The position numbers and the translations under genes are program-made. Below the pieces are notes generated by a model that saw nothing but the letters and a program-made list of their open reading frames with translations, searched no databases and was not told the DNA's origin. Shown here in pieces: positions 10,274 through 59,870 of a DNA stretch of 64,000 nucleotides (within the stretch, counting starts at the first letter, position 1; each line of letters starts with the position of its first letter). The DNA is from an uncultured bacterium (lineage in GTDB: Bacteria; Patescibacteriota; Minisyncoccia; Phycocordibacterales; Phycocordibacteraceae). Location: contig CAWKPH010000001.1 of assembly GCA_963851445.1 (NCBI GenBank), forward strand, positions 361,363-425,362, in the 5' to 3' direction.

Positions 10274-10314
10274 TTCGATCCTTAGTTCTACAGTAACTAA
10301 GCTACAATAATCAC

Positions 10315-10644
10315 ATGGAAAGAAAGGTGATAAAGTTCCGGGACTTTCTTGCCGATCTCGTACAAAAAGGAGAAAAGGATTCGACATGGAGACTCTTTGA
10401 TGATAAAGATCTCCAAAAAGGAGACCGGGTTGATTTGGTTAATTGGAATACAGGTGAGAAATTCGCTGAAGCTATTCTTACCGAAGTCCATGAAAGGTCT
10501 ATGGGAGATTTAAAGCCAATCGACTTTGAAGGGCACGAGAAATTTGAAAACGAGGAAGAAATGTACAAAGCATATCGAACCTATTACGGAGATATGGTTG
10601 GACCAGAGACTCTGGTCAAGATTATCCATTTTAGTCTGATCTGA
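10315..10644 (+). CDS. ASCH-domain protein (YqfB-like)
   Basis: 109 aa. The pattern of hydrophobic and Gly-Asp-Arg residues resembles the ASCH beta-barrel fold (GEKDSTWRLFDDKDLQKGDRVDL...). Family assignment is tentative. Confidence 0.45.
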   Translation: MERKVIKFRDFLADLVQKGEKDSTWRLFDDKDLQKGDRVDLVNWNTGEKFAEAILTEVHERSMGDLKPIDFEGHEKFENEEEMYKAYRTYYGDMVGPETLVKIIHFSLI

Positions 10645-10695
10645 TGTAGATTCCAGCATCGTCTTTACAGCCACAAATCACAAAGAATTGCTATA

Positions 10696-11094
10696 ATGCC
10701 AAGCATGAAAGAGTACGAAGATGCAATCAGGACCTACCTACAGGAGCGAAAGTGGGATGATCTTCGTCCGAGCGATCTTGCTAAGTCAGTAGCGATTGAG
10801 GCTGCAGAATTACTTGAGTTGTTTCAGTGGACAAATCAGACCCTTGTAGAAGTGAAGCAAGATCCTGAAAAATTAGAAGCGATCAAGAAAGAGCTGGCAG
10901 ACGTACTTATTTATTGCTTCGATATGAGTGTTCTTTTGGGTTTTGATACGGGAGATATTCTTCTCAAAAAACTTGAAAAAGCAAAGCAAAAATACCCCGC
11001 ACATTTATTTAAAGATCGTGACGAAAATCAAGACGCCGGTTCGGAGGATATTTATTGGAAAATAAAAAAGGATCATCGAATGAAAGGAGAATAG
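10696..11094 (+). CDS. MazG-like nucleotide pyrophosphohydrolase
   Basis: 132 aa. EAAELLE ... ELADVLIY helical pair characteristic of the MazG/dCTPase all-alpha NTP-PPase fold. Confidence 0.6.
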   Translation: MPSMKEYEDAIRTYLQERKWDDLRPSDLAKSVAIEAAELLELFQWTNQTLVEVKQDPEKLEAIKKELADVLIYCFDMSVLLGFDTGDILLKKLEKAKQKYPAHLFKDRDENQDAGSEDIYWKIKKDHRMKGE

Positions 11095-11108
11095 GCCTCT
11101 GAGAAAAT

Positions 11109-11525
11109 ATGCAAAGGGAAATAGATATTCACAAAACTGCAGGAATTCTAATTCAAGATCGAAAATTTCTCGTTACTAGACCGAAGGGTAAGAGCTATTT
11201 TATTTCTCCAGGAGGGAAAGTTGAACTGGGAGAAACTACGTACGAGGCTTTAAAAAGAGAGTTAAGGGAGGAAATTGAAATAGATATAGACACTTCTGAC
11301 TTGCAGGAGTTCGGTACATTTTACGCACCAGCCCAGGGACAAAAGAATAAGTATCTTCAGATGGATGTTTTTCTAGTTACAAAATGGAAAGGAGAAATAA
11401 AACCAGCGAATGAGATTGAAGAAACTATGTGGATCGATTCAAAATTACCCCCAGATATAGAGGTGGGGTCAATATTCCAACATGACGTATTACCCAGACT
11501 AAAAAGTCTTGACCTTATCGATTAA
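11109..11525 (+). CDS. Nudix hydrolase (MutT-like)
   Basis: Canonical Nudix box: GGKVELGETTYEALKRELREEIEI (Gx5Ex7REUxEExGU). Confidence 0.8.
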   Translation: MQREIDIHKTAGILIQDRKFLVTRPKGKSYFISPGGKVELGETTYEALKRELREEIEIDIDTSDLQEFGTFYAPAQGQKNKYLQMDVFLVTKWKGEIKPANEIEETMWIDSKLPPDIEVGSIFQHDVLPRLKSLDLID

Positions 11526-11575
11526 GATTCTTATACCGTCCCAAGAATCCCCAGCAACTCTTGTATACTTAGGGT

Positions 11576-11998
11576 ATGAATCTACAAGTTGGAGTCAAGG
11601 TACTTTTAAAAAACTCTGATGGCAAAATCCTTATTCTTAAACGCTCTGAAGAGAAATACGGTAAGACAAGCGGATCATGGGACATAGTAGGTGGAAGAAT
11701 CGATCCAGGAACATCTCTTCTTGAGAATTTAGAAAGAGAGGTATTAGAAGAAACCAAATTATCGTTCGTTTCAGAAGCAAAGCTCATAGCCGCACAGGAT
11801 ATTATTCCGAATCAGGAACGACACATTGTTCGGCTCACGTACGTAGCTCACACAAAAGGAAAGCCTGAATTAGATTTGATTGAACACAGCGAATATAAAT
11901 GGGTGACATTTCAGAATCTTATCAAAGAGACAGATTTGGATATCTACGTCGGAATGCTCCTCAAAAGAGGACTACTAAGAGAGGATTCTTGGGATTAA
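11576..11998 (+). CDS. Nudix hydrolase
   Basis: Nudix box: GGRIDPGTSLLENLEREVLEETKL. Confidence 0.8.
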   Translation: MNLQVGVKVLLKNSDGKILILKRSEEKYGKTSGSWDIVGGRIDPGTSLLENLEREVLEETKLSFVSEAKLIAAQDIIPNQERHIVRLTYVAHTKGKPELDLIEHSEYKWVTFQNLIKETDLDIYVGMLLKRGLLREDSWD

Positions 11999-12062
11999 AG
12001 CTCCTAATAGTCATGAGTTTGCAAACCAACCACCCAAAGCATATTCTCATCACAGGCGTACA

Positions 12063-12521
12063 ATGGAGAAAATGATGAGGAAAGGCGTAGACTACCCAGG
12101 CATCGCAATTGTCTTTGCGTGTCATGATGGCAATGGCAATTTCCTTCTTTCTAAAAGGAGCGTCGAGTCACGGGACGAAAAAGGCATGTGGGCACAAGGC
12201 GGTGGGGCCCTCGAACTTGGTGATACCGAAGAATATACCCTCAGAAAAGAGATCATGGAGGAATACTGCACTGAAGTAATTGAGATTGAATATCTAGGGC
12301 ATCGCGAGGTTCTTCGTGAACAAGAAGGGGTAAAAACTCACTGGATTGCTCACGACTTCAAAGTATTAATTGATCGGTCAATGGTTAAAAACGGTGAGCC
12401 CCATAAAGCAGACGAAATCGGATGGTTTTCGCTTGAGGAACTTCCGAGTCCAATGTATTCCCAGTGGTCAATCTTTTATGAGTTATACAAAGACAAGCTC
12501 AGCGCACCGTCTCTTCAATAG
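12063..12521 (+). CDS. Nudix hydrolase
   Basis: Nudix-box variant: GGGALELGDTEEYTLRKEIMEEY. This is the third tandem Nudix paralog. Confidence 0.7.
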   Translation: MEKMMRKGVDYPGIAIVFACHDGNGNFLLSKRSVESRDEKGMWAQGGGALELGDTEEYTLRKEIMEEYCTEVIEIEYLGHREVLREQEGVKTHWIAHDFKVLIDRSMVKNGEPHKADEIGWFSLEELPSPMYSQWSIFYELYKDKLSAPSLQ

Positions 12522-12603: not shown

Positions 12604-14517
12604 ATGTCTCCTGAGGATTCTGCCGATGCTTTGGAAAAGATACGAGAGCGATTATATTCGCCAACAGCGAACACATCGTTTCATGAACCTTCTCTTTCGC
12701 CTCGGGTAGCACCTGACGAGAGCCAACACTGGCAACCCCCACCTCCCCAACCCCAACCGAAGTCGCATAAGAAGCGTCTTTCGTGGACAGTGTGGTTTCT
12801 CATTGGTGCCACATTGTTCTTTCTCATTGCTATCGGTCTCTCATCACTGTATCTACTACGTGGCACTAATACAGTCTCGAGCAATAACATCGATATTAGT
12901 GTTCAGGGACCTACCTCTATCGCAAGCGGCTCCACCGTTCCACTTGTTCTCAGTATCGTAAATCACAATTCCGCAGACATCATTAATGCGAACATAGAAA
13001 TGGATTTTCCTGATGGCACGCGCTCGTCAGACGATGTAACACAGCCTCTTGTTCGTTACACCTACGATCTTGGAACTCTGGTTGCAGGAGGAACCGCAAC
13101 CTCCACTACCCAAGCCGTACTATTTGGGAGCGTAAATCAATCTATTAGTATTCCAGTAACCCTCACATACCAAACACCTAATTCGAACGCTACATACACA
13201 AAGACTCAAAATTACAGCGTAACAATCACGAGCTCACCGATAACCATCACGGCGACCTCGGTATCAAGTGTCGCATCAGGACAGCCGTTCATGATTGCGG
13301 TTGCAGTGCGTTCGAATGCGACAACTCCGCTCACCAACGTCGCAGTCGCCGCCGTGTATCCAACATCAGGTTTCACCACAACGAATTCCGGAAATGCCAC
13401 TTCAACGCCGGGGCCGTTCTATGAGATCGGCACACTAGAGCCCGGTGAGGAAAAGGACTTTACGATCGGCGGCGTGCTTTCAGGTACTGATGCTAATCAA
13501 CAGAGCTTCCAATTCACGGTAGGTACTGCAAGTTCAGAGGGAACGACACAGATATCAGTTCCATATGCGAGTGCGACAACCAATGTCACAATAACCCAGC
13601 CATTTCTTGCGACGACACTGACCCTCAACAATGATGCCACTGATCAAACGATAGCTACTGCAGGACAGCCAGTCGCCGGTCTCGTGTCCTGGTCAAATAC
13701 ACTCTCGTCGCAAATACAAAGCGGGCAAGTGACGATTCAATTGAAGGGAGAGGCGCTTGATCCAAACAGTGTGCAGGTCACCAATGGTTATTTCGATTCG
13801 TCGAACGATACAATCATTTTCAACGGACAGAGTGATCCAAGCCTACAAACCCTTAATCCAGGTGATTCCGGCAGTGCCACCTTCTCATTTGCCTCGAAAA
13901 CTGGTGCTGCGCTTGCACAGATACAGAATCCAACCATACAGTTATCTGTTAGTGTTGCAGGAGAATCCGGCAGTAGCGGTTCCCAGAGTATTTCCGATAA
14001 CCTCACCCGTAACGTACTTGTTGCAACTGATCTTGGGTTGTCCTCAAGCATCGTCCATACGACGGGGCCATTCCCTAATTCAGGTCCATGGCCGCCGATT
14101 GCAAATCAAACAACAACTTATACCGTGGAGCTCTCGATTACGAATACTCTGAATGACGTCGCTGGCGGTGAAGTTACGACCATCCTACCCCAGTATGTGA
14201 ATTTCACCGGAAATATGACTCCTAACGATGGATCTCTTTCATACGATGCCGCCTCACGCACCGTCACCTGGAAAGTGGGTTCTATACCAGCAGGAACTGG
14301 CATCAGCGGCACTCCGCCGCTCACGGCAGCATTCCAGATTTCATTGACCCCAAGTCTCTCGCAAGTCGATTCAAGTCCTATTCTCGTAGGGAATCAGGAA
14401 CTTACAGGCCAAGATCGCTTCACTGGCGCACAGGTAGAGAGCACTGCCAACGCACTCACCACAGAGACCACGACCGACCCTGGGTATCAGCCCTCATTTG
14501 GCAAGGTTCGCAATTAA
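12604..14517 (+). CDS. membrane-anchored cell-surface protein with repeated beta-sandwich (CARDB/DUF11-like) domains
   Basis: 637 aa. Pro-rich cytoplasmic N-terminus, a single TM helix (WTVWFLIGATLFFLIAIGLSSLYLL), then Thr/Ser/Asn-rich repeats with a recurring G.TL.GE/VAGG pattern. Confidence 0.55.
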   Translation: MSPEDSADALEKIRERLYSPTANTSFHEPSLSPRVAPDESQHWQPPPPQPQPKSHKKRLSWTVWFLIGATLFFLIAIGLSSLYLLRGTNTVSSNNIDISVQGPTSIASGSTVPLVLSIVNHNSADIINANIEMDFPDGTRSSDDVTQPLVRYTYDLGTLVAGGTATSTTQAVLFGSVNQSISIPVTLTYQTPNSNATYTKTQNYSVTITSSPITITATSVSSVASGQPFMIAVAVRSNATTPLTNVAVAAVYPTSGFTTTNSGNATSTPGPFYEIGTLEPGEEKDFTIGGVLSGTDANQQSFQFTVGTASSEGTTQISVPYASATTNVTITQPFLATTLTLNNDATDQTIATAGQPVAGLVSWSNTLSSQIQSGQVTIQLKGEALDPNSVQVTNGYFDSSNDTIIFNGQSDPSLQTLNPGDSGSATFSFASKTGAALAQIQNPTIQLSVSVAGESGSSGSQSISDNLTRNVLVATDLGLSSSIVHTTGPFPNSGPWPPIANQTTTYTVELSITNTLNDVAGGEVTTILPQYVNFTGNMTPNDGSLSYDAASRTVTWKVGSIPAGTGISGTPPLTAAFQISLTPSLSQVDSSPILVGNQELTGQDRFTGAQVESTANALTTETTTDPGYQPSFGKVRN

Positions 14518-23928: not shown

Positions 23929-26112
23929 CTACAAGAGATCAGTTGACACAGCGGTATCAGGAGAAGGAATAGTCCCCGTTCGAGCTCGAGAAAGGACATC
24001 GCGTGGACGGGAACCATCAGCTGCACCAATAACTCCTTTTTGTTCAAGGATGTCCATAAGCCTTGCTGCACGGGAATATCCAATGCGAAGTTTGCGCTGA
24101 AGGTAAGAGGTCGAGGCGCGACCAGCCTCTTCAACGGCTTCTTTTGCCTGTTCGTACAGATCGTCATCTACATCGTCATCTTCACCTGCCAGCATAATCG
24201 TCTCATTGGGTTCGTGAACTCCGGTACCATTTGTGCCTGTGCCAAGATCAAGTGAAGAGAGGGAGCCTGCATTGTGGTCCCGTATATAGGCTGCTACCTT
24301 CTTTACTTCGCCCTCAGAAATATAGGCGGTCTGTACGCGTACTGGCTTCTGCATATCTGATGAGAGATAGAGCATGTCTCCCGCGCCAAGCAAGCTCTCA
24401 GCACCATTTCCATCAAGAATGGTGCGTGAATCAATTTGAGAGGAAACTTGAAGCGCAAGTCGTGTTGGAACATTCGCTTTAATGAGACCCGTGATGACGT
24501 TTACCGATGGCCGCTGCGTCGAAAGGATAAGGTGAATGCCAACTGCACGCGACATCTGGGCTAGCCGAACGATGCCCGCTTCGAGCTCGCGTGGGTAGGT
24601 ATGCATAATATCGGCAAGTTCATCGATGACGATTACTATATAGGGCATTGCTTCAGGAAGGGGCAGCCGGCCCTTTTTCTTCGCTGGTTCGACGATCGTT
24701 CGATGATATGAATCGATATCACGCACTTGCTCTGACTCGAGTATGTTATAGCGACGTTCCATCTCTTTAGCAGCCCATTTGAGAGCCAAAATAGTTTTTT
24801 TAGGATCGGTAATGACTGGAGTCAGGAGGTGGGGAATACCGTTGTATAACGTAAGCTCAACACGCTTCGGATCGATCATAATAAATCGGAGCTGATTTGG
24901 TCCATTGCGATATAAAAGAGAAGTTATGAGCGCGTGGATCGCAACTGACTTTCCCGATCCCGTAGCACCTGCAACGAGTCCATGGGGCATTTTCGCAACA
25001 TTAACATAATGAGGAGTGCCTGCGATGTCTCGCCCAATTGCAGCTAGAAGTGGCTTATTGCTGGCATTCCATTCAGGTGCGGAAAGAACACCGCCCAGGC
25101 CAACCATCGCCTTGGATGCATTAGGAACTTCAATACCTACCAGCGACTTGCCTGGAATTGGTGCCTCTATACGTACGGGGTGAGCCGCAAGTGCTAATTC
25201 GAGGTTTTGCTGCAAGGCTGCTATCTTTTGCAGGCGCACTCCTTCAGCTGGTTTTATGGCATAACGCGTAACCGTGGGACCCACAGAAACCTCATCCATC
25301 TCGACAGAAATACCAAAATTTTGAAAAGTACGCTTGATTATATTCGCATTCGCCTTTATATCACCGACTCCTGGCTTACCCTTGTCTTCTCCAAGAATTG
25401 AGAGTGGTGGAGGATCGTATTCAGCATCAAAATTAGGTATCGCCGCTGCAACAATTGTTGATGAGGCAAGCGCCTGACCCTGGGGCTGATTAAAGACACT
25501 TATGGTTGGCTCGTGATCAATTTCGACATGGCCTGGCTCGGCTACTTCTGGGGCGGCGTCTTCGAAATCCTCCTCGGGACCTTCTCTCCTAGGTAGGGAA
25601 GGGAGACGAACTGCTGCCATCCTTTCTCCTGCACGTTTACTCAGCGCTGATGCAGATTTCATGAGTAAAACTATGTCGGTAGCAATTATGAGACCAATAA
25701 GCGCAAGCGCAATCAACAGAATAGATGCCCCCGCGATGCCGAACAAGCTCGTAGTCTCTTGACCTGCCCACGCACCAGCGACACCGCCAAGTGTTGAGGA
25801 TGCTATGCCAAGGGCAGTTAGTGCAGCGACCAATATAAAGGTGAGTCCAACGCTTGTAATTGGGGATACCAGTAAGCTTTCAATGGCGATCGCAATGCCG
25901 ATGGCTATCACAAGAATTGGAACGAGGTAAGCAGCAACCCCAACTTCCCTGAAGGTTGCTTCGAACGCAGTTTTACCGACGACTCCAGCAAACCCAAATG
26001 CTCCCAGAAGTAAAATGAGGCCAAGCGCTGTAAGCGCGATAACCAGTGTCCACTTGGCGACAATCTTATATGAAAATGAATTACGCGAACGGCGTTTTCG
26101 TCGGTTCATCAA
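23929..26112 (-). CDS. ftsK: DNA translocase FtsK/SpoIIIE
   Basis: 727 aa. N-terminal TM helices, Walker A GATGSGKSV, the FtsK motor domain, and the C-terminal gamma wHTH (SYLQRKLRIGYSRAARLMDILEQKGVIG). Confidence 0.9.
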   Translation of the reverse strand: MMNRRKRRSRNSFSYKIVAKWTLVIALTALGLILLLGAFGFAGVVGKTAFEATFREVGVAAYLVPILVIAIGIAIAIESLLVSPITSVGLTFILVAALTALGIASSTLGGVAGAWAGQETTSLFGIAGASILLIALALIGLIIATDIVLLMKSASALSKRAGERMAAVRLPSLPRREGPEEDFEDAAPEVAEPGHVEIDHEPTISVFNQPQGQALASSTIVAAAIPNFDAEYDPPPLSILGEDKGKPGVGDIKANANIIKRTFQNFGISVEMDEVSVGPTVTRYAIKPAEGVRLQKIAALQQNLELALAAHPVRIEAPIPGKSLVGIEVPNASKAMVGLGGVLSAPEWNASNKPLLAAIGRDIAGTPHYVNVAKMPHGLVAGATGSGKSVAIHALITSLLYRNGPNQLRFIMIDPKRVELTLYNGIPHLLTPVITDPKKTILALKWAAKEMERRYNILESEQVRDIDSYHRTIVEPAKKKGRLPLPEAMPYIVIVIDELADIMHTYPRELEAGIVRLAQMSRAVGIHLILSTQRPSVNVITGLIKANVPTRLALQVSSQIDSRTILDGNGAESLLGAGDMLYLSSDMQKPVRVQTAYISEGEVKKVAAYIRDHNAGSLSSLDLGTGTNGTGVHEPNETIMLAGEDDDVDDDLYEQAKEAVEEAGRASTSYLQRKLRIGYSRAARLMDILEQKGVIGAADGSRPRDVLSRARTGTIPSPDTAVSTDLL

Positions 26113-32875: not shown

Positions 32876-33540
32876 GAGGAGTAGACACTGATCCTTGACA
32901 TCTGAATACGTAAATTAAAGGTATCAACGTCATGTTTCGAAAGAGACATGACAGTGAATTGCATTAGATCATAAAATTGTGGTGTTCAGGTTTCCGCACA
33001 GGAAACGTGAAGGGTGCACGGTGGATGCCTAGGCTTAGAAAGGCGATGAAGGACGTGACTAGTCTGCGAAATGCTCCGGGGAGGTGACTTGTAACCTTTG
33101 ATCCGGAGGTGTCCGAATGAGGAAACTCAATCCGAATGGATTACCTATCTCTATTGAAATAGGAGCAAACCCAGGGAAGTGAAACATCTCAGTACCTGGA
33201 GGAAAAGAAAACAACAGCGAGTTACTTTCCGTTCGCCCGATGCTTCGGGCGGATGGAAAGTAACTCTCGCGATTCCCTAAGTAGCGGCGAGCGAAACGGG
33301 AAATAGCCCAAACCAGATACTTCGGTATGTGGGGTTGTAGGGCAGAGGTTCCGTACTTGTATGGCAAGAGTTACAAAAGACTTATATAACGGAAACTGCT
33401 GGGAAGCAGTGCCCTAGAGGGTAATGGCCCCGTACGTGAAATATATGATCACTCTTGTGCTTCTATTCCTGAGTAGTTCGAGACACGAATAGCTCGGATG
33501 AATCTGCCGGAACTAACCGGTAAGGCTAAATACTTTCTAA

Positions 33541-33586
<46 letters not shown>

Positions 33587-34159
33587 GAAAGGGGAGTGAA
33601 ATAGAACTGAAACCGTGCACTTACAAAGGGTTATGGCGGGTGTTCGCATCCGTTATAGCGTGCCTATTGAAGAATGAGCCTGCGAGTGTATGTATGTTGC
33701 GTTGGCTAAATCCGTTATGGGATGGAGCCCTAGGGAAACCGAGTGTGAATAGCGCGTTTGTAGCATACATACGACCCGAAGCCAGGTGAGCTTGCCATGG
33801 GCAGGGTGAAGTTCAACGAAAGTTGGATGGAGGCCCGAACCCGTACGTCGTACAACGCGTTGGGATGACCTGTGGTAAGGAGTGAAAAGCTAATCGAACC
33901 TGGTAATAGCTGGTTCTCTCTGAAACATCTTTTGGGATGGCGTCGTGTGATCCTTCTGGGGGTAGAGCACTGGAAGGGATGAACAGGGAGAAATCTCGTC
34001 ATTCCTATCAACCTCCGAATACCAGAAATTAACAGCACGGCAGTTAGACCATGGGGGCGAAGCTCCATCGGTCAAAAGGGGAAGAGCCCGGATCGCCAGT
34101 TAAGGTCCCTAAATCGACACTGAGTACAACTTAAGGAAGTGAGAATCCTTCGACAATGA

Positions 34160-34191
<32 letters not shown>

Positions 34192-35065
34192 GATAGCGTA
34201 ACAGCTCACTCATCGAGGGTTCTTGCGCCGAAGATAATCGGGGTTAAGTGTCGTACCGAAGCTGCGGGTTTGTGCACTTCATAGAGAGTGTGTTTAAACA
34301 CGTCCTTTCTATGAAGTGCACAAGCGGTAAGAGAGCGTTCCGTTCTGCGATGAAGGATAAAGGGGTGACCCATTCTGGAGCGTACGGAAGTGAGAATGCA
34401 GGTACAAGTAACCACAATGCGGGTGAGAACCCCGCACGTCGAAAGATCAAGGTTTCCTCAGCTATGGTGATCAACTGAGGGTTAGTCGGGCCTAAGGGGA
34501 TGGCGAAAGCCGCACCCGATGGACACAGGGTTAATATTCCCTGACCGATTACACATGCGATGGAGTGACGGACGGCTGTACGTAGTGCCCATTATTGGAT
34601 TTGGGTCAGTGCCGTGAGGAGGTGTCCTAGGAAAATCCGGGATGCACATACTCCGAGCGGAAAGGCAATGCTCTTCTTCGGAGGGGCAGAGACTACGGAG
34701 CGCGGTTCCAAGAAAAACTTCTAAGCTTCAGTGTGTAACGACCGTACCGCAAACCGACACAGGTGATCAGCTCGAGTAGAGTAAGACGAACGAGTGAGAG
34801 GTCCTCAAGGAACTCGGCAAAAAAGCGGCCGTAAGTTAGCGATAAGGCCTGCCCCATATCAAGTTATAGGGCCGCAGCGAAAGATTTTCTGGCAACTGTT
34901 TACCAAAAACACAGCTCCCTGCGAACTCGTAAGAGGATGTATAGGGGGTGACGCCTGACCAATGCCGGAAGGTCAAGCAGGGACGGTAGTATAGATTTCG
35001 ATTTGTACGTGCTAGGCCCTATAAGCCCCGGTGAATGTCGGCGATAACTATAATCGTCCTAAGGT

Positions 35066-35258
35066 TCTGCATAGGATTCGTCCTATGCAGAACGGATTGG
35101 GACGATTATAGGAGACCGTAAACAGTTCTGAGAAGATTACGTCATTAAAAGCTACCTCTTTCTTTGGAAACGAAGATTGAATCCGCAACTCAAATGAGAG
35201 GCCATACGTTGCGCTCCCGAAAGGGATGAAGATATGGTCCTTCTTGAAGGAATAGAAG
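35066..35258 (+). other. intron-like / intervening sequence 1 in 23S (about 193 nt)
   Basis: It splits the universally conserved CCUAAGGU|AGCG(A)AAUUCCUUGUC sequence (E. coli about 1925-1931). It begins with a perfect hairpin, ctgcatagga-ttcg-tcctatgcag. It contains gggacgattatag, complementary to the upstream exon ctataatcgtcc. Confidence 0.5.
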
Positions 35259-35919
35259 AGCGTAATTCCTTGTCTGGTAAGTTCAGACGTGCACGAATGG
35301 CGTAATGACTGGAAAACTGTCTCGAGGACTCGCTCGGTGAAAATGCAATACCGGTGAAGATGCCGGTTACCTGTAGTTAGACGAAAAGACCCCAGGAGCT
35401 TTACTACAGCTTCATATTGAGGCTGCGTGGCTCATGCGTAGAATAGGTGGGAGGCTTTGAAGTGTCCTTTTCGGGGGACATGGAGCCGACAGTGAAATAC
35501 CACTCTTGAGTTGTGCAGTCTCTAACCTACATAAGAACTATGTGGGGACCGTGTGTGGCGGGTAGTTTTGGTGGGGCGCTATCCTCCTAAAAAGTAACGG
35601 AGGAGTCTATTAAGGTTGGCTAGGCGCGAATGGAAACCGTGCCGATAGTGTAAGGGCATAAGCCAGCTTAACTGCGAGACGTACATGTCAAGCAGATGCG
35701 AAAGCAGAGCCTAGTGAACCGATGGTTCGCCTTAGATGCGGCCAGAGATTAACGGATAAAAGTTACCCTGGGGATAACAGGCTAGTTCCGCCCAAGCGTC
35801 CATAGCGACGGCGGAGTTCGGCACCTCGATGTCGGCTCACCTTAGCGCGGGGCTGGAGAAGGTCCCAAGCGTTTGGCTGTTCGCCAATTAAAAAGGTACG
35901 CGAGCTGGGTTCAGACCGT

Positions 35920-36260
35920 GCAGAAATTAATTCTGGAATTTATTCTATGACTCGATTTCTGCACCGTCTGAATCCCTTTGAGATTTCTGTTATCAGAACT
36001 CGATAAAGTGCGAATGTGAATGTCTTTTCGTCGTACAAGACGAATAAGAACCAACCATGACACGGCGACGTGTGCAGGAATGTACAACGATCAATCAACT
36101 AATATCGGTAAAACCCGATCCGGAAACGGAGGACAATACCGAGGGAAATCGAAAGATTGACCCGTAGAGACTGAATGTTGATCACCTAGAACCGGTGAAG
36201 TTACAGTCCGATCCCTTCAGTAATGGAGGCGCATGCGTAAAGCAAGCATAAAACAAAATG
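35920..36260 (+). other. group I intron-like insertion 2 in 23S (about 341 nt)
   Basis: It splits GGGUUCAGACCGU|CGUGAGACAG, the equivalent of the E. coli 2593 site. The 5' exon ends in U and the insert ends in G. Internal accgtctgaa pairs 9/10 with the 5' exon end ttcagaccgt, which is IGS-like. No ORF lies inside. Confidence 0.55.
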
Positions 36261-36624
36261 CGTGAGACAGGTTGGTCTCCTATCTACTACAGGCGTTGAT
36301 TTTTGAGGAGAGTTGCCCCTAGTACGAGAGGACCGGGGTGAACTGACCTCTGGTCTACCAGCTGTCTGCCAAGGCACCGCTGGGTAGCTATGTCGGGATG
36401 GGATAACTGCTGAAAGCATATAAGCGGGAAGCCCACTCCAAGATTAGAAATCGTTATGAGACACCTAGAAGATTACTAGGTTGATAGGCTCTAGATGTAC
36501 GCACAGTAATGTGTTCAGTCGAGGAGTACTAATATGTCCAGTTTCTTGTGCGGAATTCTGTATGGCACAATTTGTTTGGTCGCATACATTATTTCATATA
36601 CTATTTACGTATTCTAGTACGAAC

Positions 36625-36752
36625 GTACCCAGAACGCTGGTGATTTGTCCGAAGGGCCACACCCGTTCTCATTCCGAACACGGCAGTTAAGCCTTCCTGA
36701 GCCGATGGTACTCGTAAGGGGAGAGTAGGTTGTCGCCAGCGTTCTGGGTACG
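36625..36752 (+). rRNA. rrf: 5S ribosomal RNA
   Basis: Helix I gtacccagaacgctgg ... ccagcgttctgggtac. Conserved loop ccgaacacggcagttaagcc and gccgatggtactcg. Confidence 0.8.
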
Positions 36753-46549: not shown

Positions 46550-46736
46550 GGACTCATTGCCTCGTGGGGGCGTATTTTTTACTCTCCAGAGTAAGGCAGC
46601 GGCACCTTGAAAACAGAATACGTTAAACACAACTTGTGCATAGAAGTGCATTATATAGAGCTATACAAATCAGTGGAATATAAGTATGCAGGGAGAAATC
46701 CTTGCAAGTGAATTCTTTTGTTCCGCCTATTCTTAA

Positions 46737-48197
<1,461 letters not shown>

Positions 48198-48416
48198 CGG
48201 ACCGAGTTGATAGAGATATCACTCATTGTCGATCTGTTCGTATGCGGAGCGTTGAGAATTTTCTCAATTATTTTGCATGCGGCAGGGGAGATGACTGTTG
48301 TCCCAAAACACAGTACGGACGCCGGAAAAACGCACCGGCACGTGGGATCGCTCAATTGACGATCTCACACGGAATAGGCGGAACACAAGAGCGCACTTTC
48401 CACTGATTTAGATTCT

Positions 48417-48456
48417 AAAAACAAACAGCCTGAGTTACTCAGGCTGTTTGTTTTTA
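48417..48456 (+). terminator. rho-independent terminator downstream of 16S
   Basis: aaaaacaaacagcctgag-tta-ctcaggctgtttgttttt: a perfect 16-bp stem with flanking A-run and T-run. Confidence 0.7.
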
Positions 48457-48725
48457 GAACGTTGCGGTAGCGTTGTTCGGGGCATGCTCATTTTTCATGC
48501 GAGCGAGCTTGAGAACGCACCGACGCCAAATCCTATACTTATTCCTGTGTCGGCGAAGCTTATCTTCAAGCGTGGAGTAATGACGCCTATGTCGTGATTC
48601 GCGATTTGTGACGCGATGCTGCATCCTTAGGTTTGAGTATAACTCAAAATCTTCTATGCTGCTGGGGAAAAGGACAAAGTTGCCTAAGGGTTTAGATTTG
48701 ATACTATCCAGAGACCAGACAATAC

Positions 48726-48800
48726 GCAAGCGTAGCTCAGTTGGTAGAGCACCCGACTGATACTCGGGCGGTCGAAAGTTCGAATCTTTCCGCTTGCACC
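48726..48800 (+). tRNA. tRNA-Ile (anticodon GAT)
   Basis: Cloverleaf folded by hand. Acceptor gcaagcg/cgcttgc. D arm gctc-agttggta-gagc. Anticodon arm cccga-ctGATac-tcggg. 5-nt variable loop. T arm gaaag-ttcgaat-ctttc. Discriminator A. CCA is not fully encoded. Confidence 0.8.
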
Positions 48801-52110: not shown

Positions 52111-52968
52111 TTAATGCCGACGACAGATCAGAGCTATATTTCGAGCATCACCCGCGAATTCAGGATGCAAGCTCCGGGTGGACGCGAATTGACTTGCCGC
52201 CGGCGGAGAGCACTTGCTCGTACAATGGGCCAGCCTAAGACTTAGAGCCTGCGCCCTTATGAGAGCCGGAATACTTAGTTTTCCGTCTCCCTCTGTCATG
52301 ATGCCCTCGCCCCATCGTGCCCGGATGTCCTCGAACATGAGCCGGTTTTGGTCGCCCCACTCGGGGTGGTCGAACGGATGAGTAAAGTCCGCGGCCCGTA
52401 TTGAGAACAGGGTGATGACTCTGAGATTGCCTGGACTTATCCCTAGTATTTCTGTGAATCTATAGGCAATCGCATGGAGCACACCTTCGAACTCCCGTGG
52501 GCTTTCACCACGTAAGCGTCCTCTGTCGATAAGCGAATCGCGGCCCGCATGAGCTACGATCGCACACCCTTGGGCCGTAACGGCGATTGCGGGACATCCA
52601 GCGTTGCTCATTACGAATGCGGCTCGTGGCGGCAACGATGTTCCGTCGGCAGGCAGTCCCTTATTTCGATACAGCACTACGCCCTTCGGAAGAGAGATTG
52701 CCGTCGTAAGATCAGTATACTTAACAATCCTAGCATTCATACTTGCGACGGAAGGCGCATAGAGTGTTCTGACATCGCACCGAAGTGCCATTTGCGAAAG
52801 TCGCTCGGCTAAGTCTGGGTGCTTAGTAACGTCCTCCTGACAATAGAGCTTTCGAAGCGATAAATCTTCGCCCCGCCTCGGAGGGAAATGATATCCCTCG
52901 TAGAGGACATCACCCTCCTCATGGTGTTTGTAGTAAAACGGCTCTGGACACCTAGCCCCCTCTGTCAC
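52111..52968 (-). CDS. hypothetical protein, possibly YfiH/PgeF (DUF152, Cu-oxidase_4) family
   Basis: 285 aa. The segment ADG..(11)..AFVMSNAGCPAIAVTAQGCAIVAHAGRDSL resembles the PgeF core ADa...lav.TADClPvl....vaavHAGWRGl. The flanking regions are divergent, so the call is tentative. Confidence 0.35.
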   Translation of the reverse strand: MTEGARCPEPFYYKHHEEGDVLYEGYHFPPRRGEDLSLRKLYCQEDVTKHPDLAERLSQMALRCDVRTLYAPSVASMNARIVKYTDLTTAISLPKGVVLYRNKGLPADGTSLPPRAAFVMSNAGCPAIAVTAQGCAIVAHAGRDSLIDRGRLRGESPREFEGVLHAIAYRFTEILGISPGNLRVITLFSIRAADFTHPFDHPEWGDQNRLMFEDIRARWGEGIMTEGDGKLSIPALIRAQALSLRLAHCTSKCSPPAASQFASTRSLHPEFAGDARNIALICRRH

Positions 52969-53096: not shown

Positions 53097-53777
53097 ATGG
53101 GAACACTTTCCGTTGTAGGAACCCCAATAGGGAACCTTGGCGATATCACAATACGCGCTCTTCAAACCTTGAAGGATGCGGATGCAATCGCGTGCGAGGA
53201 TACGCGCGTATCTTCGAAACTGCTGGCGCGCTACGATATCAAGAAACCCCTTCTTATTTTTCATGCCCAAAGTGGCTCGCACGCAGCAGAGCGCATCTTA
53301 GGCCTTCTTGGAGAAGGGAAGCATGTAGCACTTATTACTGACGCTGGGACGCCGGGTATTTCGGATCCCGGAAGCGAGCTCGTGTCGATGGCGCGGGAAC
53401 GACTCGGCGGTGATGTACGTATCGAAACAATCCCTGGTCCCGCTGCACTTACTGCAGCTCTTTCGATCGCTGGAGTCTCAGGCAATGATTTTGTATTTCT
53501 CGGATTTTTACCGCATAAAAAAGGTCGTCAAACACTTTTTCGTGAGATCGCTGATATGACACGAACGGTAATATTTTATGAATCACCGCATCGCATTGAG
53601 AAAACACTGGCGTCGCTTGCGCAAACTCTCTTACCAGAACGCAAGGTTCTCGTGCTACGCGAACTCACTAAGATACACGAATCTTTTGTTGAAGGAACGC
53701 CAGAAGAGGTTGCAGAGTACTTTGCCAAACATAAGGCAGCCGTACGGGGCGAATTCGTTGTCATTATTACCCGATAA
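53097..53777 (+). CDS. rsmI: 16S rRNA (cytidine1402-2'-O)-methyltransferase
   Basis: 226 aa. Tetrapyrrole-methylase fold N-terminus GTLSVVGTPIGNLGDITIRALQTLKDADAIACEDTR. Confidence 0.85.
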   Translation: MGTLSVVGTPIGNLGDITIRALQTLKDADAIACEDTRVSSKLLARYDIKKPLLIFHAQSGSHAAERILGLLGEGKHVALITDAGTPGISDPGSELVSMARERLGGDVRIETIPGPAALTAALSIAGVSGNDFVFLGFLPHKKGRQTLFREIADMTRTVIFYESPHRIEKTLASLAQTLLPERKVLVLRELTKIHESFVEGTPEEVAEYFAKHKAAVRGEFVVIITR

Positions 53778-53801: not shown

Positions 53802-53990
53802 ATGACACGCGGAACCTCCTTAATCATACTCGCCTTATTGATTATAATTGCTCCTTTTTCAGGACTACCAAATTCTTGGCTTATGGTGATCCTTCCTGTT
53901 ATCGGCTTGATTGTGTTAATTATTGGTACCACTCTTCGTCATCATAATCCGCGTACTCGCAGTGCAAATTCTCACGGAGATGCCATATAA
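53802..53990 (+). CDS. hypothetical small two-TM membrane protein
   Basis: 62-aa ORF with two hydrophobic helices. It directly precedes the T4CP-like ATPase on the same strand. Confidence 0.3.
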   Translation: MTRGTSLIILALLIIIAPFSGLPNSWLMVILPVIGLIVLIIGTTLRHHNPRTRSANSHGDAI

Positions 53991-54074
53991 ATAGGCTTTC
54001 TTTCAATTTTCTCAGAAGACAGGAATTTTCTTATTCATACTGAAGATTCATGTCGCGTTGTATACTTATGCGGT

Positions 54075-55859
54075 ATGGAGAATCCTGAACGAGTAACCTA
54101 TTTTGCCGCCACCGATTCACGCGGTAAACGCATACCTTTTGGTATAAAGGAAAAGGATCGCTCAAAGCATATGTATGTGATTGGGAAGACGGGCATGGGC
54201 AAATCAACCATGCTCGAAAATATGGCCATCCAGGACATCCGGAATGGAGAGGGACTGGCATTTATCGACCCACACGGTGGTACGGCTGACAAACTCCTCG
54301 AGTTTGTGCCGAAGGAACGCATCAACGATGTGGTCTACTTTGCGCCATTTGATATGCAGCGCCCCATTGCCTTCAATGTTATGGAGGATGTCGGTTATGA
54401 CAAGCGTCACCTGGTTGTATCGGGTCTCATGGCGACGTTCAAAAAAATCTGGGTCGATGCCTGGAGCGCACGTATGGAATACATTCTTTCGAATACACTC
54501 CTTGCACTCCTTGAATATCCAGATGCGACACTCCTCAGTGTTAATCGTATGTACACGGATAAAGCTTTTAGGAAGAAAGTCGTTGACAATGTGAAGGACC
54601 CGGTCGTTAAGGATTTCTGGGTGAAGGAATTCGCGAATTATGGCGACCGATACACGCAGGAGGCGACACCGGCTATCCAAAATAAGATCGGCCAATTCAC
54701 AAGTAATCCACTTATTCGTAATATAATCGGTCAGCCTAAATCATCGTTCGATATCCGTGACCTCATGGATCGCAAAAAGATTCTTATCATCAATCTTTCG
54801 AAAGGGCAGGTGGGGGAGACGAACATGAGGCTCCTTGGGTCAATGATCACCACGCGTATATTCCTTGGCGCAATGAGCCGCGCAGATTTGCATCATACAG
54901 CAATTGATAAGCTTCCAAATTTTTATTTCTTCGTGGACGAGTTCCAGAATTTCGCGAATGATACGTTTTCAGAGATTCTTTCGGAATCTCGTAAATACAA
55001 ACTCAATCTTGTAATTGCCCATCAGTACATTGAGCAGATGGAAGAGCAAGTCCGGGCCGCAGTCTTTGGTAACGTCGGTACAACAGTGGCGTTTCGTGTC
55101 GGTCCATTCGATGCCGAGACACTCGAAGTTATATTTTCTCCAGAATTCATGAAGGAAGATTTAGTAAATCTATCATTTGCGCAGATTTATCTCACTCTCA
55201 TGATTGATGGAGTGGGATCAAGACCTTTCTCTGCAATAACTATTCCACCGATCGAACCCCCGCCGCATACCTATAAAGAGGAAGTTATCGAAGCATCCCG
55301 ACGACAATTCGGCGCACCTCGCGAACAAATCGAAGCTGCCCTTATGCATGAACTAGTCGACGCTGTTCAAACCGATCCAAATGAAATTGCTGAAAAACGT
55401 TCAGCACCAAAACGTTCGCCAGCACAAAGACTGTCTTCAGAGTCTGCCAGAAAGACAGAAACGCGTGAACCCTATAGAGGTAGGCAAACTGAAGGAGCAT
55501 CAAATGAATCACGTGGAGGAAATGATCGACAGAGCCGCTCATCACATGATAACCAAGAAGCGCGCTCGGAGCGGCCAAATCGATCAGAGCCGAAGGTGAA
55601 AACCGCAGATGACTTAAAGGCTATTTTACGGACAATGACTGCAGGGAATCATACAAGTTCCTCAGACAAGGTCGATTCGAAGTCAGCAGACTCACTTAAA
55701 AGTACGCTTGCTGGGATCATGCAACCACAATCACCAGCGAAGTCAACTACACAGGCACAGAAAACACGACCCGAGCCTGTACATACGGAGGTGTCTTCAA
55801 GCAGCGAACCCTTCGAAGTCCCAGAGGAGAAATTGAAAGCGATATTCCGTGAACAATGA
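54075..55859 (+). CDS. TraG/TraD/VirD4-family (type IV coupling protein-like) P-loop ATPase, soluble, with disordered C-terminal tail
   Basis: 594 aa. Walker A VIGKTGMGKST followed by IDPHGG. Walker B FYFFVDEFQNF. Conserved R...Q...Q segment ESRKYKLNLVIAHQYIEQM...TTVAFRVG, typical of T4CP/TrwB-like ATPases. No TM helices. The last 170 aa or so are Ser/Arg/Glu/Lys-rich low complexity. Confidence 0.55.
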   Translation: MENPERVTYFAATDSRGKRIPFGIKEKDRSKHMYVIGKTGMGKSTMLENMAIQDIRNGEGLAFIDPHGGTADKLLEFVPKERINDVVYFAPFDMQRPIAFNVMEDVGYDKRHLVVSGLMATFKKIWVDAWSARMEYILSNTLLALLEYPDATLLSVNRMYTDKAFRKKVVDNVKDPVVKDFWVKEFANYGDRYTQEATPAIQNKIGQFTSNPLIRNIIGQPKSSFDIRDLMDRKKILIINLSKGQVGETNMRLLGSMITTRIFLGAMSRADLHHTAIDKLPNFYFFVDEFQNFANDTFSEILSESRKYKLNLVIAHQYIEQMEEQVRAAVFGNVGTTVAFRVGPFDAETLEVIFSPEFMKEDLVNLSFAQIYLTLMIDGVGSRPFSAITIPPIEPPPHTYKEEVIEASRRQFGAPREQIEAALMHELVDAVQTDPNEIAEKRSAPKRSPAQRLSSESARKTETREPYRGRQTEGASNESRGGNDRQSRSSHDNQEARSERPNRSEPKVKTADDLKAILRTMTAGNHTSSSDKVDSKSADSLKSTLAGIMQPQSPAKSTTQAQKTRPEPVHTEVSSSSEPFEVPEEKLKAIFREQ

Positions 55860-55975
55860 TGTAACGTTCTCTCATCAACAGTAGTTCTACTAGTCGAACC
55901 GCGAATTTGAATTATAGGTCGCGCGATCAAGAGTAACTTCGAAAAAATATGCAAAGAATACAGAGGGCTCCGTAG

Positions 55976-56019
55976 CCCCAGACGATTCGGCAAAAGTCGG
56001 AACGTCTGGGGCGTTTTCG
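55976..56019 (+). terminator. rho-independent terminator after the ATPase gene
   Basis: ccccagacg ... cgtctgggg-cgttttcg. Confidence 0.5.
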
Positions 56020-58198: not shown

Positions 58199-59302
58199 TT
58201 AGTGTAGACCTTGCTGGCGCTGCTTCTCATCACTGCTTCGAAGTAGATCGCGCGCGCGCTGATAATCCTCGATCTCCTTTTGATCTATGGATTTGTCAAT
58301 CAGCACGGCTTCAAGCACCTTTGACCAAAAAGCGACGCGGTTGGTGTTAAGCTCGAGGAGGTTTCCCGAACTCTTATCAAGCGTACTCGTGTAATACCAA
58401 ATTATCTCGCCAAGGCGATAAACACGCATGAGCTTGAGAGAAAGAACTTCTTCGGGTGTCCGGTTGTCGTGTACATAGCGTGTAAGTGCTTCTTCAAGAG
58501 GTCGATTATAGAGCGTCATGAAATTCAAGAAGCGTGCCCACCCTTCATATTTGTTGCCAAAACGAAGTGAAGAATAATCAAGGAGATAGATATCACTTTC
58601 AACAACTCGAAAATTGTGCGGAACGAAATCGGTATGCGTGAGGAAATTGCCGTACTGATCGATGGTCTCTTGATTAATTTCAAGGAATTTTTGTGCACGA
58701 TCAAGTAGGGAAGTGAGTTCCAGATCGTCCGCTAAGCGCCGCTTAATTTTCTGTATAAATCCGGCAAACGCGTAACCGTAGGCTCTCGCATTCATGCTGC
58801 CGAATGTTTTTTTAATAAGACGTACATGTTCATAAGTCGTAGCATGTGCACTCTCTTGGGCTTTGAAAGATTTAAGTGCGAGCGAAAACTGCTCCTCGAG
58901 TGGCCGTTCGAGAAAAGCGCTCTTCTGCTCTATAAACGCCTGAATTGATATCACATGTCGACCTTTCTTTACGAACAATATCTCTTCTGGAGAAAGAAAT
59001 ATCTGATAGGCAAATTTGATTTCTTGTAACACTCGACGACAGTTCCGTTCATGTTCGAGCTCTCGAATACCAGCAGGATCGCTCGTTGTTTTGATAACAA
59101 CGCGCTTGTGGTCGCTCTTTCTACTGCCGAGCAAAATCAGTTTCTTTCCGCTTGTTGTCGTGACTGCCTGCATGAGATATCGTTCGCCCCAAATGTGAGG
59201 CTGCAGGGAATCGAGGACGTATCCAAGACTATCTAAAAGGGGTACAACAATTTCCAATTCGTTTTTGCAATAATCCTCCCAGATTTGTTTTGCATCAGAC
59301 AT
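58199..59302 (-). CDS. phosphotransferase-family kinase (APH / choline-kinase-like fold)
   Basis: The Brenner-type catalytic motif HTDFVPHNFRV (HxDxxxxN), followed by LDYSSLRFGNKYEGWARFL (a DFG/IDWE-like metal-binding region). The start is chosen at the internal Met (MSDAKQ), which gives an 8-nt overlap with the upstream gene. Confidence 0.55.
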   Translation of the reverse strand: MSDAKQIWEDYCKNELEIVVPLLDSLGYVLDSLQPHIWGERYLMQAVTTTSGKKLILLGSRKSDHKRVVIKTTSDPAGIRELEHERNCRRVLQEIKFAYQIFLSPEEILFVKKGRHVISIQAFIEQKSAFLERPLEEQFSLALKSFKAQESAHATTYEHVRLIKKTFGSMNARAYGYAFAGFIQKIKRRLADDLELTSLLDRAQKFLEINQETIDQYGNFLTHTDFVPHNFRVVESDIYLLDYSSLRFGNKYEGWARFLNFMTLYNRPLEEALTRYVHDNRTPEEVLSLKLMRVYRLGEIIWYYTSTLDKSSGNLLELNTNRVAFWSKVLEAVLIDKSIDQKEIEDYQRARDLLRSSDEKQRQQGLH

Positions 59303-59870
59303 GGGCAAAGGTATCTTTAAGCGTCCGGATATGCGTATCCCAAGATGCTTCATATGCCTCTAGCTCATGGGGCGGAGTTGTTTTGAACGGAAGAACCTCA
59401 GGTTTTGTAAGAGGCATATCGGTAATGATTGTGTGTGCTCGTGAGGTTGCTAAGTGTTCTATAGCCCTGTAAAAAGTGCTTTGACGCGCATGCTCATGTG
59501 CTCTTTGGTCACTCATATGAACAACCAATGGCTCCATCGTAAGATACGACGCGATCACCGTAGGCAATTCTACCGATGCACCATTTTGCATATAGATTAC
59601 GTCGGCCTCCCGTACTGCTTTCAAAAGTGTGAAAGTGTACATAAGAAGTCGTACGAGAAGTGGCTGGTTTTTATTTACAGTGATAATATCCACGCCGTCT
59701 ATTTTTTCCGGTAGAGAGCCGTACGTTACTATCACAAGCTTGGTCTGGGATTGACCCCCCGTTTTTGAGGATTCTGGCTCCTTACTCAAACGTCTTGCGA
59801 GCTCCTTTACGTAGGGCGCTGGTTCGGCAATATCGGGTGGATATAGCGGTGTCGCCACAACAACTTTCAT
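59295..59870 (-). CDS. truncated glycosyltransferase (GT4 N-terminal domain only), a paralog of the adjacent divergent GT
   Basis: 191 aa. The N-terminal MKVVVATPLYPPD... region parallels MKLVLATPLYPPD... of the gene at 59934 through the first 150 aa or so. It lacks the catalytic C-terminal domain. Confidence 0.45.
   Translation of the reverse strand: MKVVVATPLYPPDIAEPAPYVKELARRLSKEPESSKTGGQSQTKLVIVTYGSLPEKIDGVDIITVNKNQPLLVRLLMYTFTLLKAVREADVIYMQNGASVELPTVIASYLTMEPLVVHMSDQRAHEHARQSTFYRAIEHLATSRAHTIITDMPLTKPEVLPFKTTPPHELEAYEASWDTHIRTLKDTFAHV

Follow-up and report, generated by a model that had tools for sequence, protein, structure and literature searches.

We analyzed the gene neighborhood of a P-loop ATPase that resembles the type IV coupling proteins (T4CPs; VirD4/TrwB-type) in a stretch of 64,000 nucleotides (nt), referred to here as the window, from the genome of an uncultured member of the Patescibacteria (contig CAWKPH010000001.1). 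The locus consists of three genes and a hairpin, all on the forward (+) strand. An RsmI-like methyltransferase gene (53097-53777; Pfam TP_methylase, 119.7 bits) is followed by an open reading frame (ORF) for a small membrane protein of 62 amino acids (aa) with two transmembrane (TM) segments (53802-53990), which was recognized by its hydropathy and by a family hidden Markov model (HMM). After an 84-nt spacer comes the gene for the soluble 594-aa ATPase (54075-55859), assigned from Pfam and fold matches. Beginning 117 nt past the ATPase stop codon, CCCCAGACGaUUCGGCaaaaGUCGGAaCGUCUGGGG (55976-56011) can form a terminator-like hairpin that is followed by CGUUUUCG to position 56019. Its stem of 10 bp plus 6 bp with bulges is present in both the minimum free energy and the centroid folds, and the region has a z-score of -2.6; a simple consensus terminator scan missed the hairpin at 55976-56019, which was seen on direct folding. 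The two ORFs, the ATPase motifs and the closing hairpin had all been proposed in an earlier sequence-only reading of this stretch, and each is present where that reading had placed it.

The ATPase carries a Walker A motif (P-loop), GKTGMGKST, at aa 37-45 (54183-54209) that is invariant in an alignment of 55 homologues. The Walker B motif, FYFFVDEF, at aa 283-290 and the segment ESRKYKLNLVIAHQ at aa 304-317 (together 54921-55025) are likewise invariant or nearly so, and the R…Q…Q segment that had been picked out along with the Walker motifs falls in strongly conserved columns. Within ESRKYKLNLVIAHQ, R306 and H316-Q317 are invariant; by parallel with the FtsK/HerA superfamily, R306 and Q317 are candidates for the arginine finger and the sensor. 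An AlphaFold model built on the 55 sequences places an all-alpha insertion between the two Walker motifs (aa ~108-232; 54396-54770) with helices at 108-125, 132-147, 155-161, 163-172, 176-188, 191-209, 212-218 and 227-232, where the predicted local distance difference test score (pLDDT) is mostly 76-97. The insertion matches the all-alpha domain of T4CPs in position, and the Pfam TrwB_AAD_bind match spans aa 26-343. Over the whole protein the mean pLDDT is 71.6, with confident regions at aa 50-330 and 390-430. The modelled fold begins at residue 7 with no N-terminal domain ahead of the core, and we find no TM segment in the protein, for which the maximum 19-aa Kyte-Doolittle hydropathy is 1.32 (at aa 363); the view that this ATPase has no N-terminal TM anchor holds. 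Between the two confident regions, aa 344-387 (55104-55235) form a segment that is modelled with a pLDDT below 50 and nonetheless occupies nearly invariant alignment columns. The most hydrophobic stretch of the protein, aa 363-381, lies inside it, and this segment may form an interface for oligomerization, for a partner or near the membrane.

Three Pfam families of T4CPs match the ATPase above their gathering cut-offs: TrwB_AAD_bind with 42.8 bits (cut-off 20.5), T4SS-DNA_transf with 31.9 (20.1) and TraG-D_C with 30.1 (22). The FtsK_SpoIIIE model was not passed (14 bits against a cut-off of 24), nor was the VirB4-type model P-loop_TraG (14.6 against 25.8 bits), and AAA_10, also VirB4-type, gave no match. 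When the predicted model was searched against the PDB with Foldseek, the best matches were DotL (1.6e-11), Cagbeta (2.3e-9) and TrwB (3.8e-9) with TM-scores of 0.4-0.5, and DndH-C and VirB4 ranked lower. TrwB was also the only PDB sequence reached by the family profile (E 0.0024). The T4CP-like identity suggested by the sequence-only reading is thus borne out by the Pfam models and by the fold search, and no other ATPase family took the place of best match. Two results weigh against an assignment to the T4CPs: the NCBIfam equivalog and subfamily models were missed widely (SXT_TraD, 47 bits against a cut-off of 366; conju_CD1115, 47 against 250; TraD_Ftype, 15.5 against 521), and HerA structures are interleaved with the T4CP structures among the fold matches. 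From these sequence and model comparisons we conclude that the ATPase is T4CP-like, and a remote member rather than an ordinary conjugative T4CP because the NCBIfam scores lie so far under their cut-offs. In common with VirD4, TrwB, TraG and TraD, it has a P-loop nucleotide-binding domain of the FtsK/HerA superfamily with the all-alpha insertion between the Walker motifs and an extension at the C-terminus with the potential to recruit partners, in the way that TraM is bound by the tail of TraD. In contrast to these proteins, it has no N-terminal TM domain (TMD) in cis and no linkage to VirB or relaxase genes, its gene sits on the chromosome, is passed on vertically and by far exceeds the housekeeping genes around it in conservation, and its similarity to the Pfam models is weak (30-43 bits).

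The proximity of HerA in these searches raises the alternative that the protein is a HerA-like or defense-type NTPase, such as a MADS mad8-like or HerA-effector component, and not a coupling protein. The two groups belong to the same ATPase superfamily, some of their fold E-values are comparable with HerA structures among the top matches, the DUF87/HerA Pfam model is passed by a narrow margin (24.0 bits, cut-off 23.2), and PADLOC reports mad8 at E 4.9e-14 along with weaker HerA models. However, the T4CP Pfam models outscore DUF87, and the HAS-barrel N-terminal domain is missing from a fold that starts at residue 7. There is also no adjoining nuclease, Sir2, NurA or other effector partner, and the conserved housekeeping synteny and ~81% identity across species are unlike the usual patchy distribution of defense genes. 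We judge the mad8 match to be superfamily-level similarity only and consider this alternative very improbable; a stand-alone defense function, which had been floated from the sequence, is disfavored on the same grounds. A further candidate, replacement of FtsK, was rejected since the window already encodes an FtsK of canonical make-up (alpha, motor and gamma domains) at 23929-26112.

The C-terminal part of the ATPase (aa 431-594; 55365-55856) is a disordered tail by composition and by AlphaFold pLDDT. It contains 15% Ser, 10% Glu and 10% Arg, is also Lys-rich, and has a net charge of +4. Both its length and its sequence vary in the 55-sequence alignment. The pLDDT is below 50 throughout except in three short helices (aa 511-523, 540-548 and 584-591), which are the only helices modelled in the tail, coincide with conserved motifs and are amphipathic (hydrophobic moment 0.3-0.5). 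The earlier description of a low-complexity Ser/Arg/Glu/Lys tail is therefore right for the composition and for most of the length, but the tail is not featureless. Motif 1, KVKTADDLKAILRTMT (aa 508-523; 55596-55643), is a conserved amphipathic helix with the consensus K[TS]AEDLKAILRxMT, a hydrophobic moment of 0.44-0.48, invariant L514 and L518, and D513 and I517 in at least 90% of sequences. Motif 2, SADSLKSTLAGIM (aa 537-549; 55683-55721), is a conserved short helix with the consensus LKxALxxVL, in which L541 and L545 are present in at least 90% of sequences. Motif 3, FEVPEEKLKAIFREQ (aa 580-594; 55812-55856), is the extreme C-terminal peptide, with the consensus PFEVPEExLRAIFKE, an invariant L587, and E581, P583 and E584 in at least 90% of sequences.

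An 'EVPEDxLKxIL' C-terminus is kept in relatives at 60-65% identity (such as P0159 and P0170) whose tails reach 470 aa, and distant members of the family carry another conserved C-terminal peptide, 'KPGExVxF'. Some relatives have extra modules in their tails (P0178, P0188, P0194, P0196, P0201, P0203, P0205, P0206, P0217, P0229, P0242 and P0256). In P0256 the tail includes an S1 RNA-binding domain. At least 11 of 150 representatives have a CxxC...CxxC element in their tails, identified as a zf_Tbcl_2 treble-clef zinc finger; of the 10 tested, 8 score above the cut-off of that model. The anatomy of the tail is that of a flexible tether with docking peptides and occasional nucleic-acid-type modules.

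The ATPase gene is widespread. At least 584 GTDB species representatives encode a relative, and in the 80 species with the best matches, whose loci we used for all comparisons of gene neighborhood, the protein is 78-87% identical over aa 1-430. A word-index search gave at least 8000 candidates with E <= 0.001, the best 120 of which, besides the identical P0001, have 63-72% full-length identity, and an exhaustive search gave 21,478 representative clusters at E <= 1e-3, 5,651 of them with E <= 1e-30. Annotations of the homologues name Kaiserbacteria, Paceibacterota, Parcubacteria or Minisyncoccia, which all belong to the ultra-small Patescibacteria (candidate phyla radiation). Across the 80 loci the gene order MurD-MurC-...-RsmI-small ORF-ATPase-epimerase-GT4 is widely retained, with an RsmI homologue in 74 of them and another in the locus of a more distant relative (L086). 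We regard the RsmI gene as a conserved upstream neighbor that is context only, possibly co-transcribed with the small ORF across the 24-nt gap that separates them. Two flanking ORFs on the reverse strand, 52111-52968 (285 aa) and 58199-59353 (384 aa), match no Pfam family and are each present in 16-19 of the 80 loci.

In the same 80 genomes, the median identity is 81% for the ATPase core compared with 66% for RsmI, 58-61% for the MurC-/MurD-like ligases, 61% for the epimerase and 47% for the GT4 glycosyltransferase, a comparison that slightly favors the ATPase as the loci were chosen by its best matches among the GTDB species representatives. By these sequence comparisons, the locus is passed on vertically and under strong constraint. 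No close relatives of the ATPase were found on IMG/VR viral contigs, and the phage matches are 11 distant GenBank phage records. We rejected the idea of a mobile-element remnant, given the conserved housekeeping synteny, the ~81% identity across species and a GC content that does not deviate.

By hydropathy, the small protein has TM1 at aa 5-21 (nt 53814-53864) and TM2 at aa 25-44 (nt 53874-53933), joined by the loop PFSGLPNSW and followed by a basic C-tail. The positive-inside rule predicts an N-in/C-in hairpin with an external loop and a cytoplasmic C-tail. We built an HMM of the family from 15 copies and found exactly one match per locus in 73 of the 80 loci, always upstream of the ATPase gene and on its strand, with E-values of 1e-10 to 1e-26. 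Three of the 7 loci without a match have less than 250 nt of upstream sequence. The small gene adjoins the ATPase gene in 46 of the 73 loci, and in the other 27, 1.1-2.8 kb of inserted genes lie between the two. The linkage extends to the locus L086 of P0179, whose ATPase is 56% identical and where RsmI and the ATPase are again accompanied by a small ORF, of 88 aa, which matches the HMM at E 2.6e-5. A database search gave 28 homologues of the small protein, 58-110 aa long, all from Patescibacteria and without a Pfam family. Given the numbers of matches, both ORFs exceed chance by far. The small ORF is a real gene linked to the ATPase, and the conservation of the upstream two-TM ORF in orthologous neighborhoods bears out the pairing that had been read from a single sequence.

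Two observations concern what else can lie upstream of the ATPase gene. Where examined, the insert between the small ORF and the ATPase gene (L004, L007, L012, L014, L017 and 22 more) encodes a 340-490-aa single-TM protein; the L014 and L017 proteins match the putative glycoside hydrolase domain DUF4015, and no Pfam family matches that of L004. In a relative with a 60% identical ATPase (P0170; L087:665-1893), two type IV pilin-like (N_methyl) genes take the place of rsmI and the small ORF directly upstream of the ATPase gene, with 2 kb of upstream sequence covered.

A conserved position could also mean that the small ORF is merely syntenic, for example as an unrelated membrane peptide that belongs with rsmI in one operon, and that the ATPase is truly soluble or reaches the membrane through its own amphipathic tail helices, whose hydrophobic moments of 0.3-0.5 would suit such a role. 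The inserted genes in 27 of the 73 loci, the 84-nt gap with no sign of translational coupling in the window and the equal synteny of rsmI all fit this explanation, as does the lack of any fusion of the small protein to the ATPase among the 28 database homologues, which also tells against the pair acting as one anchored unit. On the other hand, the small gene stays upstream and on the same strand despite the inserted genes and even at 56% ATPase identity, and it is absent from those loci examined in which a different membrane-anchored domain accompanies the ATPase (see below). There is also a published precedent for small anchors, as the 'T4CP lacking TMD' is a recognized subfamily that uses small membrane proteins as anchors, exemplified by TraJ and TraI of plasmid pIP501 (PMC7434980, PMC13037476). 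We therefore consider a purely syntenic small ORF improbable.

The window pair resembles TraJ/TraI in that a soluble VirD4-like ATPase is accompanied by a small upstream-encoded membrane protein as its proposed anchor (PMC7434980, PMC13037476), a likeness seen in the layout. pIP501 is a conjugative plasmid of monoderm (Gram-positive) bacteria, and the Patescibacteria type IV secretion system (T4SS) is related to the monoderm MPF-FATA class (PMC12102498). Unlike TraJ/TraI, the window pair lies outside any tra operon, and for the long disordered ATPase tail and its conserved motifs there is no verified counterpart in TraJ.

In other classes of Patescibacteria, the ATPase is accompanied by a larger membrane module. 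Many representatives at 45-55% identity bear a 300-460-aa N-terminal extension with a hydrophobic N-terminus and a conserved domain, PF26449/DUF8128, and such fusions are named from Saccharimonadia, Microgenomates and Berkelbacteria. The module can also be split off, as stand-alone TM+DUF8128 proteins of 413-471 aa (L081:6001-7416, L084:4780-6021) are encoded 4 nt upstream of 574-606-aa ATPases in the context SecD-SecF-sigma-like protein-DUF8128-ATPase-MnmA. The ATPases of L081 and L084 are 53% and 56% identical to the window ATPase over aa 3-423. We found no DUF8128 in any frame of the window or of the 80 loci (L001-L080) and, in the small sample of DUF8128-type loci examined, no homologue of the small ORF. 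This complementary distribution, from a small sample, fits the small protein taking over membrane anchoring. The small ORF was considered as a degenerate DUF8128 TM hairpin, for which there is no support (hhalign probability 0.3%); the profile-profile comparison detected no relationship of the small protein to that hairpin, a point against the favored reading set out below.

A model of the DUF8128 domain (P0339) has a pLDDT of 85 and a pTM of 0.80, and its top 13 fold matches in the PDB are all TrwK/VirB4 of R388, with E-values down to 5.8e-6 and TM-scores of ~0.39. The part matched is probably the VirB4 N-terminal domain, which engages the two-TM protein VirB3, because VirB4 structures with the C-terminal ATPase domain alone were not matched. 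The resemblance is structural only, as no sequence-profile link between DUF8128 and VirB4 was found. VirB3 is a small two-TM protein that docks the N-terminal domain of VirB4 and is sometimes fused to it. The window resembles this system in that the ATPase gene is directly preceded by a small two-TM gene, and sister-lineage ATPases resemble it in bearing a TM hairpin and a DUF8128 domain whose predicted fold is like TrwK/VirB4, probably its N-domain. The window ATPase itself differs in being nearer to VirD4 than to VirB4, both by models and by fold rank, and in having no DUF8128 or VirB4-N-like domain.

The same module is found in phages. In Bacillus phage G (JN638751.1 89194-93336; L088), gp156 fuses a DUF8128 domain to an ATPase (E 3e-33) and is annotated as 'MsbA-like', and gp155, encoded immediately upstream, is a VirB4-type ATPase (P-loop_TraG 57 bits, AAA_10 36 bits). 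SPO1-like Bacillus phages and a Microcystis phage have a homologue near ParM/StbA-like or ParA-like genes. The ATPase core of the window protein matches this group (phrog_5156, E 9e-57; top BFVD match, E 6.6e-22), and gp156 has the DUF8128-like N-domain in common with the sister lineages. The phage proteins differ in their low identity (23-28%), in being phage-encoded, in the lack of a visible N-terminal TM helix in gp156 and in their other neighbors (VirB4-type, ParM-like or ParA-like).

The reading that we favor, and hold to be somewhat more probable than not, is that of a T4CP-type receptor or translocase driven by nucleoside triphosphate (NTP) hydrolysis, tethered in trans by the two-TM mini-protein and using its tail to recruit a partner or substrate. 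Acting in trans, the 62-aa protein would most likely keep the soluble ATPase at the cytoplasmic membrane, analogous to the anchoring of TMD-less TraJ by TraI of pIP501. In other Patescibacteria classes, the TM-anchored DUF8128 domain, fused or encoded just upstream, would stand in place of the small protein. We infer a physical interaction of the two proteins; the idea of a trans anchor, put forward in the sequence-only reading, gains support from the absence of the small gene in the few TM-DUF8128 loci seen, from the TraI/TraJ precedent and from the predicted cytoplasmic C-tail of the small protein. Once docked, the ATPase would presumably oligomerize, by analogy as a hexamer, and NTP hydrolysis would drive the receipt or translocation of a macromolecular substrate that is probably a nucleic acid or nucleoprotein. 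The disordered tail of ~165 aa would act as a flexible tether, whose three amphipathic helices, including the C-terminal docking peptide, could recruit the partner or substrate.

The leading candidate role for such an ATPase, as yet unproven, is service to a Patescibacteria T4SS whose genes lie elsewhere in the genome. In a survey of 3,035 Patescibacteria genomes, Quinonero-Coronel et al. (2025) found 5,713 VirD4-type homologues in 2,918 genomes (~96%), VirB4 in 2,417 and relaxases in 103 (PMC12102498). The window ATPase very probably belongs to the same gene population, being VirD4-type and away from virB4. The description of the ATPase as an 'orphan' is thus apt locally, but it is one member of a Patescibacteria-wide family, and ~80% of such genomes have a VirB4 system elsewhere (PMC12102498). 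In Southlakia, Wang et al. (2023) found the T4SS cluster to be essential and without a recognizable coupling protein within it (PMC10633639).

Several observations weigh against a coupling role. virB4 is close by for only 148 of the 5,713 T4CP homologues, and the number of genomes with a T4CP homologue exceeds that with VirB4 by at least 501 (PMC12102498). Scanning the ~46 ORFs of the 64-kb window with Pfam, we found no T4SS gene (VirB4 included), relaxase, pilin or competence gene, in agreement with the earlier statement that no conjugation or T4SS gene is nearby. In transposon sequencing of Southlakia, SEML1_0293 is non-essential (NE/NE/NE), unlike the T4SS cluster (PMC10633639 supplement). 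This gene is the probable Southlakia counterpart of the window ATPase by features that it has in common with the DUF8128-fused form, namely its name from the Prokaryotic Genome Annotation Pipeline (PGAP), its Pfam layout and its sigma-factor synteny, and not by sequence comparison: it has the same PGAP name as the ATPase family, PF10412, PF12696 and PF01935 from aa ~402, and an adjoining sigma-factor gene (PMC10633639 supplement). Southlakia epibionticum ML1 has a second T4CP-like gene, SEML1_0142, which is essential (ES/ES/ES) and is preceded by the small essential gene SEML1_0141 (SEML1_0140-0142; PMC10633639 supplement). Patescibacteria thus appear to carry two distinct T4CP-like ATPases that differ in essentiality.

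These points raise the possibility that the same ATPase has been exapted as a T4SS-independent, membrane-docked nucleic-acid motor, for example in DNA or RNA import downstream of type IV pili and ComEC, or in segregation or partition. Exaptation was itself raised by Quinonero-Coronel et al., who state that it 'cannot be ruled out' (PMC12102498). Linkage to virB4 is essentially never seen, the ATPase is more widely distributed than VirB4, relaxases are rare, and SEML1_0293 is non-essential, as is comEC, whereas the T4SS is essential. The S1 and treble-clef zinc finger modules in relatives' tails, the ParM/StbA-like and ParA-like neighbors of phage relatives, and an ATPase core that is more conserved than its housekeeping neighbors are also in keeping with such a motor. 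In one relative, two pilin-like N_methyl genes immediately precede the ATPase gene; however, this adjacency is a single case, and neither the window nor the 80 loci show conserved linkage to comEC, pilus or partition genes. The window also has a canonical FtsK, and both the resemblance of DUF8128 to the VirB4 N-domain and the pairing of the module with a VirB4-type ATPase in phage G point to T4SS-like machinery. On balance we regard exaptation as a serious possibility that is nevertheless unlikely to be the correct one. A bolder version, which we find doubtful, is that the three forms (fused TM-DUF8128-ATPase, split, and small-TM plus ATPase) make up a distinct ancient lineage that combines a VirB4-like N-module with a VirD4-like motor and works as a T4SS-independent, membrane-docked nucleic-acid motor, for example as the missing cytoplasmic engine by which these epibionts, auxotrophic for nucleotides, import DNA or RNA, with the tail and its C-terminal peptide recruiting the channel or substrate.

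The ATPase gene family and its remoteness from virB4 are already present in the literature and in database annotation. Quinonero-Coronel et al. treated the T4CP homologues in bulk, and within the limits of our literature search we found no description, there or elsewhere, of the trans-encoded two-TM partner, its apparent alternation with the fused or split VirB4-N-like DUF8128, the tail peptides or the fact that the core is so exceptionally conserved.

A large part of bacterial diversity belongs to the Patescibacteria, which live on other cells and lack the ability to make nucleotides. The way in which macromolecules cross their envelope is a central question. Their T4SS is essential in the one tractable species, with no recognized coupling protein in its cluster. 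The locus described here is a clean example of the near-universal T4CP-like ATPase of these bacteria, and the trans two-TM partner, its replacement by DUF8128 in sister classes, the docking peptides of the tail and the highly conserved core provide testable handles on the role of this ATPase. A T4SS-independent nucleic-acid motor, if correct, would bear directly on the feeding and gene exchange of Patescibacteria, and a remote T4SS coupling protein would be a tidy, modest extension of known biology.

Beyond the locus, the only genes that the Pfam scan of the window identified are housekeeping genes, including those for aminoacyl-tRNA synthetases, RecA, SSB, EF-P, ribosomal proteins, FtsW, SecDF and MurC/MurD-like ligases, together with thymidylate synthase, NUDIX proteins and glycosyltransferases. 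In the 1156-aa isoleucyl-tRNA synthetase (6238-9708, +), a His_Phos_1 histidine-phosphatase domain is inserted at aa 511-670, and the same unusual architecture is found beside the ATPase gene of the distant relative (L086:7828-11328). Downstream of it, a low-GC patch (40%) at ~10300-12520 (+) contains several small ORFs, one of which (12063-12521) is a NUDIX protein by Pfam; two others (11109-11525 and 11576-11998) have NUDIX-box-like sequences, seen by eye only. The ORF at 12604-14517 (+) encodes a possible surface protein or adhesin of 637 aa, in which a single TM helix at the N-terminus is accompanied by a long stretch rich in Thr and Ser; it belongs to no Pfam family and gives a sub-threshold DotU match. 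The rRNA genes of the window are unlinked and in an unusual order, with 23S-5S at 32996-36741 and, ~10 kb further on, 16S-tRNA-Ile at 46732-48798. The 23S match covers 3,558 nt against a model of 2,925 positions, implying ~630 nt of insertion.

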